IMG/VR virus record: IMGVR_UViG_2690316153_000005
DNA: 16,076 nt
Reading direction: 5' to 3' (one strand)
Source of the DNA: a virus
Taxonomy: Duplodnaviria > Heunggongvirae > Uroviricota > Caudoviricetes
Positions 1-16,076 of this stretch are shown piece after piece (within the stretch, counting starts at the first letter, position 1; every line of letters starts with the position of its first letter). Under the pieces are notes generated by a model, which was not told where the DNA came from, ran no database searches, and was given only the letters and a program-made list of their open reading frames with translations. The position numbers and the translations under genes were made by a program.

Positions 1-2150
1 GATGCGCCGCCACCAACAGCCCCGCCAATGGCGCTGCCGATACTCCCGACAATCCCCACCATTGCCTGCTTAAGCAGAATTTCTGTCATCATGGACAGCA
101 CGGAACGGGTGAAGCTGCGCCAGTTCTGCTCACTGCCGGTCAGCATCGCCGCCATATTCTGTGCAATACCATCAAAGGTCTGCGTGGCTGCACTTTTTAC
201 CTGCGACATACTGTCCGTGGCGCTCTCTTCCCACTCACTCCAGCCGGACTTCAGGCCTGCCATCCAGTTCCCGCGAAGCTGGTCTTCAGCCGCCCAGGTC
301 TTTTTCTGCTCTGACATGACGTTATTCAGCGCCAGCGGATTATCGCCATACTGTTCCTTCAGGCGCTGTTCCGTGGCTTCCCGTTCTGCCTGCCGGTCAG
401 TCAGCCCCCGGCTTTTCGCATCAATGGCGGCCCGTTTTGCCCGTTGCTGCTGTGCGAATTTATCCGCCTGCTGCGCCAGCGCGTTCAGGCGCTCCTGATA
501 CGTAACCTTGTCGCCAAGTGCAGCCAGCTGGCGTTTGTACTCCAGCGTCTCATCTTTATGCGCCAGCAGGGATTTCTCCTGTGCAGACAGCTGGCGACGT
601 TGCGCCGCCTCCTCCAGTACCGCGAACTGACTCTCCGCCTTCCACAAATCCCGGCGCTGCTGGCTGATTTTCTCATTTGCTCCGGCATGCTTCTCCAGCG
701 TCCGGAGTTCTGCCTGAAGCGTCAGCAGGGCAGCATGAGCACTGTCTTCCTGACGATCGCCCGCAGACACCTTCACGCCGGACTGTTTCGGCTTTTTCAG
801 CGTCGCTTCATAATCCTTTTTCGCCGCCGCCATCAGCGTGTTGTAATCCGCCTGCAGGATTTTCCCGTCTTTCAGTGCCTTGTTCAGTTCTTCCTGACGG
901 GCGGTATATTTCTCCAGCGGCGTCTGCAGCCGTTCGTAAGCCTTCTGCGCCTCTTCGGTATATTTCAGCCGTGACGCTTCGGTATCGCTCTGCTGCTGCG
1001 CATTTTTGTCCTGTTGAGTCTGCTGCTCAGCCTTCTTTCGGGCGGCTTCAAGCGCAAGACGGGCCTTTTCACGATCATCCCAGTAACGCGCCCGCGCTTC
1101 ATCGTTAACAAAATAATCATCCTTGCGCAGATTCCAGATGTCGTCTGCTTTCTTAAACGCAGCCTCTGCCTTAATCAGCATCTCCTGCGCGGTATCAGGA
1201 CGACCGATATCCAGCACCGCATCCCACATGGATTTGAATGCCCGCGCAGTCCTGTCTGCCCAGGTCTCCAGCGTGCCCATGTTCTCTTTCAGGCGGCGGG
1301 TCTGGTCATCAAACCCTTTCGTTGCGGCCTCGTTCGCCGCCTGCAATGCCCCGGCTTCATCGCCGGAACGCTGCAACTGAGCAACATACGCAATCTGCTC
1401 CGTCGTCACGTTATGGAACTGGCGTGCCATCGCCGTCAGCCCCGACGTCGGGTCTGTGGTCAGCTTCCCGAAGGCTTCAGCGACCTTGTCCACCTCCACG
1501 CCGGATGCAGAGGAGAAACGCGCCACACTCTGGCTGATGGACGCAATCTGAGCCTCACCGCTTACCCCCGCCTTAACCAGTGCGCTGAGTGACTCGCTGG
1601 TCTGGTTAAACGTCAGCCCTGCCGCCTGCCCGGCTCTGGACAGGACCAGCATACGATCTGCCGTCAGTCCCGCCTGATTGCCGGAAAGGACCAGCGTTTT
1701 GTTGAAATCGGACAGGGTTGAGTTGCCCTGATACCAGGCATACGCCAGCGCACCGGTCGCCACCGCCAGCGAGGTGGCCCCCACCATCGGCAGGGTGATC
1801 GCACCGGCAAGCCCCCTGAACATGGGGATCATCCCGCCGAAGGAGTCCTTCACCTGCCCCCCCTGTTGCAGCAGGATCAGCCACGGACTTTGCCCGCCTG
1901 CAAGCTGCGTGGCCACGTCGGTGAACTGTGCAGGCAGCATACGCATGGCGGCTTTATACTGCCCGACGGAAATCCCCGCTTTCTGTGCAGCCAGCGCCTG
2001 TCGGCTCAGCGACTGTTCAACGACTGCCGCTGTTTTTTTCGCATCACTTTCCGTACCGGAAAAATGACGCCTGACTCTGGCCATCTGCTCGTCAAATCTG
2101 GCCGCATCCAGACTCAAATCAACGACCAGATCGCCTACCGGTTCAGCCAT
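1..2150 (-). CDS. H: Tail tape measure protein (lambda gpH-like), 5' part only; the 3' end lies beyond the window start
   Basis: Reverse-complement translation starts MAEPVGDLVVDLSLDAA at the ATG at 2150..2148, and near the window start reads ...KQAMVGIVGSIGSAIGGAVGGGAS, both matching my recollection of lambda gpH. The frame appears open across the whole stretch: the ORF track shows no minus-strand fragments in this frame, as expected for an ORF with no stop inside the window. Plus-strand ORFs 28..2240 are antisense artefacts. Confidence 0.85.
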   Translation of the reverse strand, partial: MAEPVGDLVVDLSLDAARFDEQMARVRRHFSGTESDAKKTAAVVEQSLSRQALAAQKAGISVGQYKAAMRMLPAQFTDVATQLAGGQSPWLILLQQGGQVKDSFGGMIPMFRGLAGAITLPMVGATSLAVATGALAYAWYQGNSTLSDFNKTLVLSGNQAGLTADRMLVLSRAGQAAGLTFNQTSESLSALVKAGVSGEAQIASISQSVARFSSASGVEVDKVAEAFGKLTTDPTSGLTAMARQFHNVTTEQIAYVAQLQRSGDEAGALQAANEAATKGFDDQTRRLKENMGTLETWADRTARAFKSMWDAVLDIGRPDTAQEMLIKAEAAFKKADDIWNLRKDDYFVNDEARARYWDDREKARLALEAARKKAEQQTQQDKNAQQQSDTEASRLKYTEEAQKAYERLQTPLEKYTARQEELNKALKDGKILQADYNTLMAAAKKDYEATLKKPKQSGVKVSAGDRQEDSAHAALLTLQAELRTLEKHAGANEKISQQRRDLWKAESQFAVLEEAAQRRQLSAQEKSLLAHKDETLEYKRQLAALGDKVTYQERLNALAQQADKFAQQQRAKRAAIDAKSRGLTDRQAEREATEQRLKEQYGDNPLALNNVMSEQKKTWAAEDQLRGNWMAGLKSGWSEWEESATDSMSQVKSAATQTFDGIAQNMAAMLTGSEQNWRSFTRSVLSMMTEILLKQAMVGIVGSIGSAIGGAVGGGA

Positions 2151-2996: not shown

Positions 2997-3806
2997 TTAA
3001 CTGGCGGTGACGGTAATTTCTGCAACCGCAGCAAACTCACCATTACCGGATACAACCGGAATGTTGACCTTGCCTGCAGCAACGCCGTTCACGGTGATGG
3101 TCATACCACTGACCGACACGGTGGCTTTTGTTTTATCCGCAGACACCGCACGAAAGCTCTTGTCGGTTACGCCCTCCGGCTGGAAGGCCACGGTCAGCGT
3201 GGTGCTCTGCCCTTTCACCACCGAGGTGCTGGAAGGCGTCACGGTCATGCCGGTTGCCGCTGTTACCGTGCTGCTCTGCCCTTTCACCACCGAGGTGCTG
3301 GAAGGCGTCACGGTCATGCCGGTTGCCGCTGTTACCGTGCTGCGATCTTCTGCCATCGACGGACGTCCCACATTGGTGACTTTCACCGTGCGGGTGATCA
3401 CTTCCTTCGCCGTCACCGCCTTACCGATACTGCTGACCCAGCCACGGAACACATCGACCGTGCCGTTCGGGAAGCGGATTTTATAGGCACGGGTATCGCC
3501 TTCATTAAACCACGCCAGCAGCGCCTGCTGCCCCTGCTCTCCGGGCATCCACGCCAGCGTGAAGCTGGTATCTCCGGCAGATTTCTGCCCCTGCCCGGTC
3601 GCAGTCCAGTCTGCATCTTCATCATCGAGATAGCTGTCGTCATAGGACTCAGCGGTCAGTTCGCCGGGCGTCAGGTCTTTAACTTTTGCCAGACGCGACC
3701 AGTCAACGTCTGAAAGCGGATTCGCATAAGGGTCACCGCTCCCCTTATAAACCCACAGGGTGGTCCCGGCACCTTTCACCGGCATTGTAGGATTTGGTAC
3801 AGGCAT
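2997..3806 (-). CDS. V: Major tail tube protein V (lambda gpV-like) carrying an internal 23-aa tandem duplication (269 aa versus 246 aa recalled for lambda)
   Basis: ORF track ORF 2997..3836; the lambda-like start [24 protein letters not shown] is at 3806. The protein contains [23 protein letters not shown] twice in tandem. Confidence 0.9.
3203..3343. repeat. Perfect direct tandem repeat, 2 x 69 bp (with 3 bp more), in frame inside gene V
   Basis: Plus strand 3203..3271 is identical to 3272..3340; the match breaks at 3202/3271 and 3275/3344. Period 69 bp equals 23 codons. Confidence 0.9.
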
Positions 3807-3813
3807 AGCGTCC

Positions 3814-4209
3814 TCACATTTCATAGGTAATGACATAAGTCAGATCGGCTGAACTCCACAGGCCCGCATCATCGTCGCGCCGGTAGTCATAGCCACTGGC
3901 CACCATACTGGTGATCAAATCTGACAGTGCCGGGATATCGCTCATCACCGGATAAATCCGGGACTCCATCCACGCATCCAGCTCTGAATCCGGCACCTGA
4001 GCAGGCAGGAAAACTTCGATATGCAGCTCCGCCTGCCAGGTATCGCTGTCCAGCTCTTCGCCCGTGTATTCAGCGCCGGTGAGATAAACGGCAACTGCCG
4101 GAAAATCCGCCTCATCAAAAACAGCGGGGCGACCATCAAAAAACGTCGCCCCGGTGTCATGCTTCTCCAGTGCATCCAGTACGGCTGCACGGAGTTCAGT
4201 ATGTTTCAT
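3814..4209 (-). CDS. U: Tail terminator protein U (lambda gpU-like), 131 aa
   Basis: [52 protein letters not shown]... matches recalled lambda gpU; synteny Z-U-V. Confidence 0.9.
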
Positions 4210-8343: not shown

Positions 8344-12024
<3,681 letters not shown>

Positions 12025-12815: not shown

Positions 12816-12996
12816 ATAAATACCATCACACATCCCACGTACACCATAAAACCACGACAAATAATCAATTTTGTCCAAGTCATGCATTAATTGATCTGTG
12901 TCAACTTAACGTAAAGACATCTTAAGACAATACAAATCAGCAGCACTGAACACGGAAAAACACAATGTCATCAAAAAATAAAGCTTCCCAAACCAG

Positions 12997-13137
12997 ATGA
13001 TTAATCAAATCCATATTGCCCTTGAACGTAAGGGATCGGGTAATTTTTCGGCATGGGTTATTGAAGCCTGCAGGAGAAGGCTGGCAACAGATGCAAAGCA
13101 CCTGCGCCCGGCCAGCATGAAAAATAACGAGAAATGA
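12997..13137 (+). CDS. Small putative DNA-binding protein (46 aa) resembling a small ORF I recall near the lambda right end; possibly ribbon-helix-helix / DUF3950 (YlcI-like)
   Basis: Hand translation of the plus strand: MINQIHIALERKGSGNFSAWVIEACRRRLATDAKHLRPASMKNNEK. It resembles the recalled lambda right-end ORF segment ...MIEQINIALEQKGSGNFSAWVIEACRRRL.... A short out-of-frame ORF (12965..13000, MSSKNKASQTR) precedes it. Below the ORF track size cutoff. Confidence 0.5.
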   Translation: MINQIHIALERKGSGNFSAWVIEACRRRLATDAKHLRPASMKNNEK

Positions 13138-13269
13138 ACGTTCGGTTACAGGAACCGGTAGCTACTGTCTTCTAACAATATTTCATCTTCATATCCGGCG
13201 AAACAAGACTTTACCCTGCAGGGATGTACTGAATAGCAACAGAGTGATAATTAACTTCTGATAAAATAA

Positions 13270-13596
13270 TCAGGGTGCTGAAGGACTAAAGATAAATGTT
13301 TTCTTCACGCCTTTACGCGGCTTGTCCTTCTCAAATCGCCATTTTGCCATCGCCTTTACAACCTGCTCATCAAACAGATGGTGCGGCTCTGAACGGATAA
13401 ACTCAATTCGGGTGACAGTACCATCAGCACCAATATCAAACTTCACATCAACCCGTCCCTTTATATAATTTGCCGCGGCATAGGCCGGATATTGTGGTAA
13501 TGCCTTAACCAACTGTCGAGGCATATCTGTTTTATGTTGCGTACAGCCCATAACCAAAGAAGACAACAAAATAATTAACGGAAGATTTCTTTTCAT
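13270..13596 (-). CDS. Predicted outer-membrane lipoprotein consisting essentially of a TonB C-terminal-domain-like fold (108 aa from the second ATG; 113 aa from the ATG at 13611)
   Basis: N-terminus MKRNLPLIILLSSLVMGC has a basic n-region, hydrophobic core and lipobox-like VMGC with +2 Thr. Residues 40-105 (PAYAAANYIKGRVDVKFDIGADGTVTRIEFIRSEPHHLFDEQVVKAMAKWRFEKDKPRKGVKKTFIF) align by eye with the recalled E. coli TonB C-terminal domain ([59 protein letters not shown]). Flanked by low-GC DNA. Confidence 0.7.
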   Translation of the reverse strand: MKRNLPLIILLSSLVMGCTQHKTDMPRQLVKALPQYPAYAAANYIKGRVDVKFDIGADGTVTRIEFIRSEPHHLFDEQVVKAMAKWRFEKDKPRKGVKKTFIFSPSAP

Positions 13597-13616
13597 TTTT
13601 ATTCCCGGCATAGATA

Positions 13617-13633
13617 AGAATAAGTCTTATTCT
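13617..13633. promoter_or_regulatory. Perfect 8-1-8 palindrome AGAATAAG-T-CTTATTCT immediately upstream of the lipoprotein gene
   Basis: Read directly; lies 6 to 37 nt upstream of the two candidate start codons on the minus strand. Confidence 0.4.
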
Positions 13634-13940
13634 AACAATGCAGCCCTGTCGGTCATCAATCCTCTGCTTAATGGCAATGACAATTATCCGACTTAAATCA
13701 CAAATCAGACACATGACATAACAGAGTTTGCGAGGTAACACATCGTCCGGTTTCTTCCACCATCGCACCGGACCAGCGACCATGAGGGGACAACGCCGCG
13801 CTCCGTTTACGCGGTAAACCCCGGTGTGTATCGTTTTTGATTATCCCCGCACACTCTCGCAGAGGAGTCTCCCTGTCGGGCTGCGGTCTCTGTTAATGCA
13901 GGAATACGGCGACAATACCGCGCATGGATAATAAGGTCGC

Positions 13941-14165
13941 TCAACACACTGGCTGTAATTCAGCGGATACCATTCGGCATTTATCAGTATTCATCACACA
14001 CTCAACGGTGAATTCTTCATGCGTGGCATTCACTTCATATGTTCGTGAATAACATTCAGTGCATTTACCTCTGAACACCTCTTCAAGCAGAACACGGCCA
14101 TGTTGCAAAACACGGAACGGAATTGTTCCCTGAAAAGGTTTTACCGTTACCTGCAATTTCTTCAT
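13941..14165 (-). CDS. Cys-rich small protein (74 aa), function unknown, translationally coupled to Rz
   Basis: ORF track protein MKKLQVTVKPFQGTIPFRVLQHGRVLLEEVFRGKCTECYSRTYEVNATHEEFTVECVMNTDKCRMVSAELQPVC; contains a CxxC motif and three further Cys. Its ATG overlaps the Rz stop as ATGA (14165..14162). I do not recognise the family. Confidence 0.5.
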   Translation of the reverse strand: MKKLQVTVKPFQGTIPFRVLQHGRVLLEEVFRGKCTECYSRTYEVNATHEEFTVECVMNTDKCRMVSAELQPVC

Positions 14166-14656
14166 ACATCCTCCGGATAATAAAAAGCCTGCTTAGTACA
14201 CTGAGTGCGGATATAGTCCTGTGCCCCTTCCAGTTGCTTCTGCATCGTCATCAGCCGCTCTCTGAGGGTGAAATAATCCCGTGTAACGGTGTCTGCCAGT
14301 TGGGGGCCGGTTGCATTATCCACGCGGGCGGTGCCGGTGGCTTCACGCACGGGACCTGGACAGGTGGCGTTGATCCGCAGGCTGCGGTGACCAGCGGCAA
14401 CGTCAGCGCGAAGAGTTTCATTTTCAGCTCTCGCATCGGCTAATTCCCTCGAGTATCTGGCATCAAGTGCAGCAACATCACGCTGGCGCTGCTGCATATC
14501 AGTAATGGTTGCATTTGCCAGCTCCAGCTCACTGACTTTTTTATCGCGCTGCTCTTTGTAGGTTATGGCGTTATCACGGTAATGATTCAGCCCCAGACTA
14601 AGCGCACCACAGGCCACCAGCAGGGCAATGATGACCACGCACAGTACGCGGTTCAT
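14162..14656 (-). CDS. Rz: Spanin inner-membrane subunit Rz (i-spanin), 164 aa
   Basis: MNRVLCVVIIALLVACGALSLGLNHYRDNAITYKEQRDKKVSELELANATITDMQQRQRDVAALDARYSRELADARAENETLRADVAAGHRSLRINATC... resembles recalled lambda Rz: N-terminal TM segment, NHYRDNAITYK motif, coiled-coil periplasmic domain. Confidence 0.88.
   Translation of the reverse strand: MNRVLCVVIIALLVACGALSLGLNHYRDNAITYKEQRDKKVSELELANATITDMQQRQRDVAALDARYSRELADARAENETLRADVAAGHRSLRINATCPGPVREATGTARVDNATGPQLADTVTRDYFTLRERLMTMQKQLEGAQDYIRTQCTKQAFYYPEDV
14251..14436 (-). CDS. Rz1: Spanin outer-membrane lipoprotein subunit Rz1 (o-spanin), embedded in the +1 frame of Rz
   Basis: MRELKMKLFALTLPLVTAACGSTPPVQVPCVKPPAPPAWIMQPAPNWQTPLHGIISPSESG has lipobox LVTAAC, a proline-rich body and conserved PPAWIMQP / GIISPSE motifs as in lambda Rz1; entirely nested in Rz. 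Confidence 0.85.
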   Translation of the reverse strand: MRELKMKLFALTLPLVTAACGSTPPVQVPCVKPPAPPAWIMQPAPNWQTPLHGIISPSESG

Positions 14657-14657
14657 T

Positions 14658-14795
14658 TCACCACCAGCGTATCTGACCGATGAAATAACCGGAGGCCATA
14701 ATCACAAACACCAGCCAGATAAGAATGAACTTCCAGGTGGATAATTTTTCAGCCATCACTCGAATCTCCCGAATCAGTTTGCTAAAATCAAACAC
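14658..14795 (-). CDS. Unannotated small single-pass membrane peptide (45 aa from GTG at 14795; 32 aa from ATG at 14756) immediately upstream of Rz
   Basis: Hand translation of the minus strand: (V/M)FDFSKLIREIRVMAEKLSTWKFILIWLVFVIMASGYFIGQIRWW. AAGGAGA sits 4 nt upstream of the GTG and GGGAGA 8 nt upstream of the internal ATG. The TGA stop (14660..14658) is 1 nt from the Rz ATG (14656). Below the ORF track size cutoff. Confidence 0.45.
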   Translation of the reverse strand: MFDFSKLIREIRVMAEKLSTWKFILIWLVFVIMASGYFIGQIRWW

Positions 14796-14821
14796 ACTTT
14801 CTCCTTTGACTTTTCCGGAGT

Positions 14822-14866
14822 CAGGAAACACAAAACCCCGCTTGCAGCCAACAAATGGGGGTTTTA
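14822..14866. terminator. Stem-loop AAAACCCC-(17 nt)-GGGGTTTT followed by a T-rich tract; candidate intrinsic terminator or RNA structure between the endolysin and the small ORF
   Basis: Read directly: 14822..14829 aaaacccc pairs with 14848..14855 ggggtttt; it is followed on the plus strand by ttttacttttatt and on the minus strand by gtgtttcc. The loop is unusually large for a canonical terminator. Confidence 0.35.
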
Positions 14867-14954
14867 CTTTTATTCACTTAGTTTTTGTCAGTTCTCAGGA
14901 TTTCGTGTTATCCGTCCGTGTGAGCAAACCGCATTTTTCAGCAAAATATTCTGC

Positions 14955-15488
14955 TTATCTGTCAATTCCCCAGCACGCCAGCGCACTCTCCTGGTCGCGA
15001 CGGGATACCTGACCGTAACAGTTATTTGAGCGAATACGGCAGTCTCTGCCACCGTCCTTAATCCACCAGCGAATCGCCTCACACGCTCCCCTGCGATCAC
15101 CTGCATTAATTCGTCTGTAAAACGTCGACGGGAAACATTTACCGGGACCAATGTTGTACGGACAGAATGACGCGATCCCCGCTTTCTGGGGTTCGGTCAG
15201 TGGCACTTTGATGTTTTTCTCCACCCATGCCAGCGCCTTATCACGTTCAATGGCGTTAACCTGGTCGCATTTCTCCTTCGACAACTTCATGCCCGGGACG
15301 ACAGGTTTACTATCCACCAGAATGGCACCGCGACAGATGGTCCAGATACCCGCGCCATCACGGTATGCCGTGGTGTGGTTACCTTCCTTTTCATCCAGAA
15401 ACTGGTCGAGGATTTCAGGCGCAGGCGCACCTGCGGCAATCAGCGCCAGAACGGCAGCCGACAGGCCGTATCTGATTTTTGCGTTCAT
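14955..15488 (-). CDS. R: SAR endolysin, T4-lysozyme-family (GH24) muramidase, phage-21 R / DLP12 RrrD type, 177 aa
   Basis: MNAKIRYGLSAAVLALIAAGAPAPEILDQFLDEKEGNHTTAYRDGAGIWTICRG... has an N-terminal weakly hydrophobic Gly/Ala-rich signal-anchor-release-like segment and an E-x8-D-x5-T catalytic triad pattern (EGNHTTAYRDGAGIWT). It follows a pinholin-type holin. Confidence 0.85.
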   Translation of the reverse strand: MNAKIRYGLSAAVLALIAAGAPAPEILDQFLDEKEGNHTTAYRDGAGIWTICRGAILVDSKPVVPGMKLSKEKCDQVNAIERDKALAWVEKNIKVPLTEPQKAGIASFCPYNIGPGKCFPSTFYRRINAGDRRGACEAIRWWIKDGGRDCRIRSNNCYGQVSRRDQESALACWGIDR

Positions 15489-15538
15489 GGATATTTATCA
15501 GGATTTATCGATTTCAAATCCCTGGATATGTTAAGTCT

Positions 15539-15886
15539 TCAGGCCAGCGGTGGAGTCTTCAGAGAACCAGTAATTATTCCCGGTAGTTTTCCTCTGTAGG
15601 TTATCAACACATCCTGCGCCTCTAAAATGATGGGCCGCTTTTCCGGCAACGGACCATCCCCTTCACATAACCCGGCAGCAACATCCATGAAAAACTGCTT
15701 CGCCTGCTTTTTCGCCTCAGCTTCGTAAAACTCCAGCGTGGCACCTTCAGTACGGTCAAGACTAATCGCCACATATGGCAACAACAGTGACGGATACCCA
15801 CCAATTTCCAGTGCCACAGTAACAGTAATCTTATCCGGGTAATTATTTATCCCTTTAACAACCAGTTCGTATTTTTTATTCATCAC
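15539..15886 (-). CDS. Conserved prophage protein of unknown function between holin and endolysin (115 aa), probably DUF1327 / YdfR-like
   Basis: MMNKKYELVVKGINNYPDKITVTVALEIGGYPSLLLPYVAISLDRTEGATLEFYEAEAKKQAKQFF...; its ATG overlaps the holin stop region (holin ends 15888). The YdfR-like assignment rests on position between ess and rrr homologues and on recollection, not on an alignment. Confidence 0.55.
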   Translation of the reverse strand: MMNKKYELVVKGINNYPDKITVTVALEIGGYPSLLLPYVAISLDRTEGATLEFYEAEAKKQAKQFFMDVAAGLCEGDGPLPEKRPIILEAQDVLITYRGKLPGIITGSLKTPPLA

Positions 15887-15887
15887 T

Positions 15888-16076
15888 TTACTCTCCCCGC
15901 GCCGCCTTACGCCGGTCCTCTCTGATTTTGAAATACAGGTTAGTCAGATACGTCAGCAGGCCAAACAGCAGACTCCCCAGCACACCTATCGCCACCCACT
16001 GGGACGGAGAGACTTTGTCCAGCAGCTGCAGTAACCAGTATCCCGTCCCCACCGCTGACGTGGTGTATGACACACC
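15888..16076 (-). CDS. S: Class II holin / pinholin of the phage 21 S21 type, N-terminus truncated by the window end
   Basis: ...[60 protein letters not shown] closely resembles recalled S21 (…[51 protein letters not shown]). The ORF continues to the window edge. Confidence 0.85.

Follow-up and report, generated by a model that had tools for sequence, protein, structure and literature searches.

[quoted passage not shown] According to the part of PMC8718954 that cites Pell 2010, tails still form when gpVC is removed, with about 100-fold lower activity, and the portion of PMC1885665 that cites Katsura 1981 describes up to a third of the gpV C-terminus as dispensable for tail assembly. As described in the section of PMC1885665 on display vectors (citing Maruyama 1994 and Dunn 1995/96), gpV is cut in these vectors at ...STSVVKG (primer CCCTTTCACCACCGAGGTGC) and linkers or peptides are fused there. 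In lambda the Ig domain is not wholly free, since it lies along the tube and touches a loop on the adjacent subunit (PMC8718954), and several arrangements of Ig-like domains are seen on the tube surface (PMC12617516).

The gene V described here shares with its lambda counterpart the position in the order U-V-G/T-H, both domains and the protein sequence except for A168S, the sole substitution, which is present in both copies of a duplicated segment; it differs in that residues 156-178, present once in the 246 residues of lambda gpV, occur twice in a product of 269. A further likeness is to the small-gpV mutants of Katsura and the lambda foo and truncated gpV fusions, in which, in the part of PMC1885665 that treats them, gpV is kept to about residue 176, with the remainder replaced or extended, and tails assemble. 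These are laboratory-made truncations, or fusions that carry foreign peptides, whereas here a natural allele has its own complete Ig domain as the 'fusion partner'. In-frame duplications and deletions in the lambda tape-measure gene H are also tolerated by assembly (Katsura 1987, the 'protein ruler', in the passage of PMC10721106 that cites it), with the difference that the length of H sets tail length and that no morphological effect is known for a change in the gpV tether.

The window and its prophage

The window, by which we mean the whole 16,076-nucleotide stretch of DNA analysed, corresponds from position 1 to about 12955 to the left arm of lambda in minus-strand orientation, with H first and Nu1 and cos last, at 99.5-99.8% nucleotide identity. 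Gene calls and Pfam families in a closely matching contig, CYDK01000062.1 (GCA_001285005.1; locus L001), show the order Z-U-V-G/T-H of the lambda morphogenesis module, and the morphogenesis genes from Nu1 to M are all at lambda lengths. Lambda identity ends about 400 nt past Nu1, and positions 12956..16076 hold a different lysis cassette, which is about 97-98% identical to that of Stx-converting phages and includes the following genes.

15888..16073, P21-type holin
15539..15886, DUF1327
14955..15488, lysozyme
14162..14656, Rz

The presence of lysis genes beside cos and Nu1 implies an integrated or circularly permuted genome, and thus a mosaic lambda-like E. coli prophage and not laboratory lambda. 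Also lying between the lysis genes and cos/Nu1 (13270..13611, minus strand) is an ORF of 113 aa that encodes the C-terminal domain of TonB (TonB_C, E = 2.7e-15), as in Stx-type lambdoid phages; in contig L001 this ORF adjoins a DUF3950 gene, and it may be a moron-type cargo gene.

The duplicated array in gene V

An earlier sequence-only reading of this DNA had described a perfect in-frame 69-bp tandem duplication in V, with a gain of 23 aa, and this description is confirmed, the same 23-aa peptide being present twice in tandem in the translation of gpV. Period-69 identity is perfect between 3203..3274 and 3272..3343 on the plus strand of the window, giving an array of 141 nt that comprises two units of 69 nt and a further 3 nt (TGC on the plus strand, GCA on the coding strand), and a 72-nt exact periodic match of this kind cannot arise by chance in 16 kb. 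Tandem Repeats Finder places the array at 3198..3343 (period 69, 2.1 copies, 98% matches, score 285), the extra 5 nt of this span being part of an imperfect 8-nt repeat that flanks it. The copies stand head-to-tail with neither spacer nor foreign sequence between them, and since the unit lies within the coding region and measures 3 x 23 nt, the frame is kept at every copy number. The features to which we refer below are as follows.

2997..3806, minus strand: gene V, major tail / tail-tube protein, 269 codons plus stop (translation, public gene call, Pfam)
3351..3755, minus strand: N-terminal tail-tube domain, Phage_TTP_12, residues 18-152 (Pfam), outside the duplication
3336..3343, minus strand, and again at the joint, 3267..3274: upstream flanking short repeat GCAGCACG (coding strand)
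3273..3341, minus strand: copy 1, promoter-proximal, codons 156-178 (translation), the putative extra tether
3259..3287, minus strand: novel joint, at which ...VKGQS is followed directly by STVTA..., GTGAAAGGGCAGAGCAGCACGGTAACAGC, a single occurrence in the window; the joint-spanning sequence of the duplicated allele is GGGCAGAGCAGCACGGTAAC
3204..3272, minus strand: copy 2, distal, codons 179-201, with the same sequence as copy 1 and running directly into strand B of the Ig-like domain
3021..3257, minus strand: Big_2 Ig-like domain, residues 184-262 (Pfam), complete if built from copy 2
3198..3205, minus strand: downstream flanking short repeat GCACCACG (coding strand), a 7/8 match to GCAGCACG

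In a mechanical list of open reading frames gene V spans 2997..3836 and encodes 279 aa from an upstream ATG that lies in gene U. The publicly annotated product begins with MPVPNP at 3806 and has 269 aa, against 246 in the lambda reference; as an exact look-up of the 279-aa form returned no record and the 269-aa form is the one called, the longer product was set aside. Two plus-strand ORFs over the repeat (3007..3486 and 3128..3379) are antisense within V and are treated as by-products of the coding strand. A reading of the repeat at the level of RNA was also discarded, its folding being no better than that of shuffled sequences (z = +0.53) and an Rfam search of the window returning no match. 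Tandem Repeats Finder gave no other notable tandem repeat in the window; a weak 21-nt x 2 repeat in the terminase gene A (11259..11300, 80% matches, score 56) is probably insignificant.

A single-copy parent and the carriers of the duplication

Removal of one 69-nt copy from the V gene of the window leaves a sequence identical at 741 of 741 nt, including the S168 codon, to the V gene (product WP_001298904.1) of E. coli 2011C-4251 (NZ_CP027388.1), where it lies within a lambda-like prophage at the DLP12 locus; WP_001298904.1 also occurs in other Shiga-toxin-type strains. The duplicated allele is thus a common parent plus one event, which supports a recent event, one of three possibilities offered by the sequence-only reading, and also explains the presence of S168 in both copies. 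The surrounding morphogenesis module of the parent prophage is 99.6-99.9% identical to that of the window, whereas its V has a single 69-bp unit and another lysis region stands beside its cos. The tape-measure gene H of 2011C-4251 (L007, 15232..17712) is annotated as frameshifted and split, and this sister prophage may be defective, or its assembly may contain indel errors.

The duplicated 269-aa protein is WP_053885835.1, represented by two GenBank proteins (CTW58878.1 and CTX90552.1) on two contigs of 10-20 kb, against at least 1000 contigs for the single-copy parent protein. Contig CYDK01000062.1 differs from the window by 5 mismatches over 13,806 nt, and these five differences indicate two separate assemblies of near-identical prophages with the same duplication in both. 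All five fall within 268..376, a 109-nt stretch of the tape-measure gene H, and the other 13.7 kb are identical; the patch looks like a small recombination or gene conversion from a paralogous prophage, or like read mixing in assembly.

Wider comparison with lambda-like V genes, which the sequence-only reading had proposed, yielded, besides the identical single-copy parent, a consistent picture of rarity. None of the 123 matching phage records has the duplication, those listed spanning 771 nt against the 840-nt query and aligning in two pieces. When a 351-nt query across the repeat was matched to complete E. coli genomes, 3,707 of 5,426 gave a match (3,727 records), and the duplication was in none of the 60 best-ranked of the 3,727 records, all 60 aligning as two pieces over 282 nt; a duplicated record would rank first. 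The novel joint, with wobble positions degenerate, had no match in GTDB species representatives, IMG/VR or JGI metagenomes, collections without draft E. coli isolates, for which reason this absence shows rarity only. A search of the literature found no described tandem duplication in a prophage major tail protein. Two public records, MW057783.1 ('Campylobacter phage CJLB-4') and a 'Major head protein [Bacillus thuringiensis Sbt003]' (P0123), match lambda V and E at 99.5-100% identity, and their Campylobacter and Bacillus labels are probably due to contaminating lambda DNA or to mislabelled database entries.

Both the joint and the copy number of exactly two come from two short-read draft assemblies, which may share a pipeline or a strain lineage, and since short reads can misjudge such arrays the real copy number could be two or higher. 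An assembly artefact was among the possibilities raised by the sequence-only reading. On this view overlapping contig ends would have been joined in scaffolding or gap closing of a genome that is truly single-copy, and it gains some colour from the state of both carriers, which are fragmented drafts with contigs of 10-20 kb, and from the up to eight V-like places per E. coli genome that complicate assembly. Some larger V and E 'duplications' on tiny contigs elsewhere look artefactual as well. We nevertheless regard such a false join as very unlikely here. The duplication is present in two separate assemblies; the window contains no N and the array lies about 3 kb from its nearer end; the duplication measures a whole number of codons; and its endpoints coincide with the one pair of octamers that match at 7/8 across this distance (1 in 665), where a false join would have arbitrary endpoints. 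Reasoning from the way de Bruijn assemblers work, the parent also has no long internal repeat from which a graph loop could be made, so that the k-mers of the joint would have to exist in the reads. As to the larger 'duplications' just mentioned, they add 74-142 aa to V (P0004-P0007) and about 80-90 aa to E (P0124, P0125) and sit on 2-8 kb contigs with GUB*/GKG* tags; apparently from one E. coli assembly set, they look like artefacts rather than biology.

Origin of the duplication

Strand misalignment at short direct repeats during replication gives rise to duplications and deletions (Farabaugh 1978, Albertini 1982, Lovett 2004). The parent gene has the octamer GCAGCACG at nt 464-471 and, at a distance of exactly 69 nt, the octamer GCACCACG at nt 533-540; the endpoints of the duplication fall on these two, with the crossover within the GCA that they share. 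At a spacing of 69 this pair is the only one of 665 positions in the parent gene with an octamer match of at least 7/8, and over all spacings from 12 to 300 the frequency of 8-nt windows matching at 7/8 or better is 0.0009. The perfect homology at the junction is 3 nt only, which is expected at about 6% of random endpoints. The location of the endpoints on the sole 7/8 repeat at this spacing argues for slipped-strand mispairing and, as set out above, against an assembly artefact.

From these features of the sequence we infer an origin by short-repeat misalignment or unequal exchange, and we propose the following course of events. In the parent gene, misalignment of strands during replication, or an unequal exchange, would have taken place between the imperfect 8-nt repeats 69 nt apart, with a crossover in the GCA common to GCAGCACG and GCACCACG, and the product is gpV(1-178) followed by gpV(156-246). 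Loss of one copy by a like misalignment would restore the parent allele.

Consequence for the tail protein

Two Pfam families cover the 269-aa protein: Phage_TTP_12 matches residues 18-152 over its full profile (1-135 of 135, E = 3.1e-70), and Big_2 matches residues 184-262 (profile 2-77 of 79, E = 9e-20). Alignment to the lambda gpV chains 6p3e and 8iyk runs in two stretches, query residues 1-178 matching gpV 1-178 and residues 179-269 matching gpV 156-246, which identifies the duplicated residues as gpV 156-178; the NMR construct 2l04 matches residues 181-269. The sequence-only reading had placed the duplication at the junction of tube and Ig-like domains, in the linker. It does begin at the domain boundary, and this part of the description holds, but it runs about 18-22 residues into the Big_2 domain, so that the duplicated unit is the last residue of the tube domain together with the start of the Big_2 domain and not the linker alone. 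The truncation point of the display vectors, ...STSVVKG, falls within the unit.

In an AF2 model the unit takes in beta-strands A and A' and reaches the turn that precedes strand B. This model was built with an alignment of 38 homologues that covers copy 2 only, and in it residues 147-180 have a pLDDT below 50, while the strands at 186-190, 193-197 and 201-209 (A, A' and B) are predicted at pLDDT 75-93. The structure prediction suggested earlier thus assigns strands A and A' to copy 2 and gives copy 1 low confidence, but as the homologues align only to copy 2 this evidence for the roles of the copies is biased and weak; a model made without the alignment, meant to avoid that bias, has a mean pLDDT of 37, too low to be informative. 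The same assignment still follows from the topology of the chain. Strand B directly continues the distal copy alone, and it would be this copy that completes the fold; use of the proximal copy would need 23 residues to be looped out.

In the arrangement that we propose, the distal copy would supply strands A and A' to a complete Big_2 Ig-like domain, the proximal copy would form about 23 extra, probably unstructured residues between tube and Ig domains, and the tube-forming domain would be left unchanged. On this model a longer tether of a non-essential, surface Ig-like domain is most likely the sole effect. The duplication is probably tolerated because only the tether of a dispensable surface domain is lengthened, and the allele itself would probably permit assembly and be close to neutral or else mildly deleterious. 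As the Ig domain contacts its neighbour and takes defined arrangements on the tube (PMC8718954, PMC12617516), a longer tether might loosen it and could carry a cost in fitness.

It may also be asked whether the change was selected, the longer tether or a spare A/A' hairpin altering the reach of the Ig domain to surface carbohydrates or its packing on the tube. Tail Ig-like domains have been proposed as weak binders of surface carbohydrates (Fraser 2006, in the passages of PMC10721106 and PMC8718954 that cite it), gpVC matters for lambda activity to the extent of the 100-fold loss on its removal (in the part of PMC8718954 that reports it), and the Ig domains have alternative arrangements on the tube (PMC12617516). 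The distribution of the allele speaks the other way: it is extremely rare, being on two contigs where the parent is on at least 1000, no spread to further backgrounds is seen, and the near-identity of the two prophages that carry it is what a single young lineage would give. We consider adaptive change very unlikely.

Other length variants of V

In-frame internal length changes of at least 3 aa are present in about 65 of the 120 top-ranking clusters (90% identity) of V-related proteins. Among the V clusters there are at least 10 different tandem duplications (12, 13, 17, 30, 39, 47, 74 aa and larger) and about 20 different deletions of 3-35 aa (for example of residues 72-90, 131-157, 140-156, 165-181 and 162-190), and several of the deletions recur on different sequence backgrounds. 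The set (P0002-P0122) comes from E. coli and Shigella prophages. Normal-length V clusters hold thousands of members each, so each variant is rare, and the many variants that have lost tube-domain core strands must come from defective prophages. The variants that we refer to individually are as follows.

259-aa V (P0017): 13-aa (39-bp) duplication flanked by the 10-nt repeat GCTGGCGTGG; in complete chromosomes, widespread
263-aa V (P0026): 17-aa (51-bp) duplication flanked by the 9-nt repeat GCACGGTGA
276-aa V (P0097): 30-aa duplication inside the Ig domain
217-aa V (P0002): 29-aa deletion

Reciprocal deletion alleles were found for the 39-bp unit (233 aa) and the 51-bp unit (229 aa), and in these two duplications the signature of short-repeat misalignment is stronger than in the 69-bp one. 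These sister alleles resemble the present one in being perfect tandem duplications or clean deletions, in frame and bounded by short direct repeats. They differ from it in unit and position, and the 259-aa form is widespread whereas the 69-bp form is private; in those checked at the DNA level the perfect flanking repeats measure 9-10 nt, against 3 nt perfect (7/8 imperfect) here. In the 217-aa V (P0002, P0003), which belongs to the same 90% cluster as the V of the window, residues 162-190 are deleted in frame (AAT joined to DKS) with the loss of strands A, A' and B; it occurs in several E. coli isolates, on a 224-kb contig among others, and it implies that in some prophages the Ig domain has been destroyed and the tube domain kept.

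In a control search, near-identical variants with in-frame length changes were fewer for the capsid protein E than for V, a comparison that is suggestive only, as the E list was filled with 89%-identity clusters of other genera and the clustering rules are opaque. Direct repeats of at least 8 nt occur in V at 6.7 per kb, which is unexceptional among the genes of the window (0-10.4 per kb). We record the abundance of slippage variants in V as an incidental pattern and not as a finding.

This pattern bears on another suggestion of the sequence-only reading, that of a contingency-type repeat, taken here to be one that would expand and contract at a useful rate and so vary the tail surface or the length of the tether within a population. 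In its favour, instability and the gain or loss of units are inherent in any perfect 69-bp tandem repeat, short repeats in the V genes of E. coli prophages have been the sites of numerous independent duplications and deletions that keep the frame, reciprocal pairs included, and by the rough control the variants of V outnumber those of E. The forms that such a repeat would be expected to leave have, however, not appeared: exact look-up among about 15 billion proteins returned no three-copy (292 aa), four-copy (315 aa) or reciprocal-deletion (223 aa) protein on the background of this allele, and these three lengths are unrepresented in the best 120 clusters. Public data hold one- and two-copy forms only, both carriers having exactly two copies and the parent a single copy on at least 1000 contigs. 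The unit is long, it is present twice only, its ancestor had no repeat tract, and copy changes that are always in frame cannot act as an on/off switch; among the remaining V variants, moreover, many lose core tube strands and look like the decay of defective prophages rather than regulated variation. With three- and four-copy and deletion forms unfound and the frame always kept, a contingency repeat is unsupported, and we think it extremely unlikely.

Conclusions

The explanation that best accommodates these observations, and one that we hold to be very probably correct, is a real, recent and strain-private 69-bp duplication of short-repeat origin that adds an extra tether to gpV and is near-neutral or mildly deleterious. 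It is an ordinary rare allele produced by ordinary slippage, and no new mechanism is involved. A bolder alternative would make the duplication non-neutral, the A/A' hairpin or the 23-residue tether altering display of the Ig domain through glycan reach, strand exchange between neighbouring subunits or a switch in packing, and would more broadly make V a hot spot of reversible slippage that supplies selectable in-frame variants of the tail surface; we judge this very unlikely.

Taken alone, the ordinary duplication that we favour is of little importance, and its interest is that of a clean natural tandem duplication at short homology whose parent allele has been identified exactly. It can be read as a natural experiment on the amount of added sequence that is tolerated by the tether of the lambda tail Ig-like domain, for which users of gpV in phage display may care. 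It also carries a warning for annotation and prophage typing, as dozens of in-frame slippage variants of V exist across E. coli prophages; given this abundance, length differences in V are common and mostly reflect mutation or decay and not new protein families.
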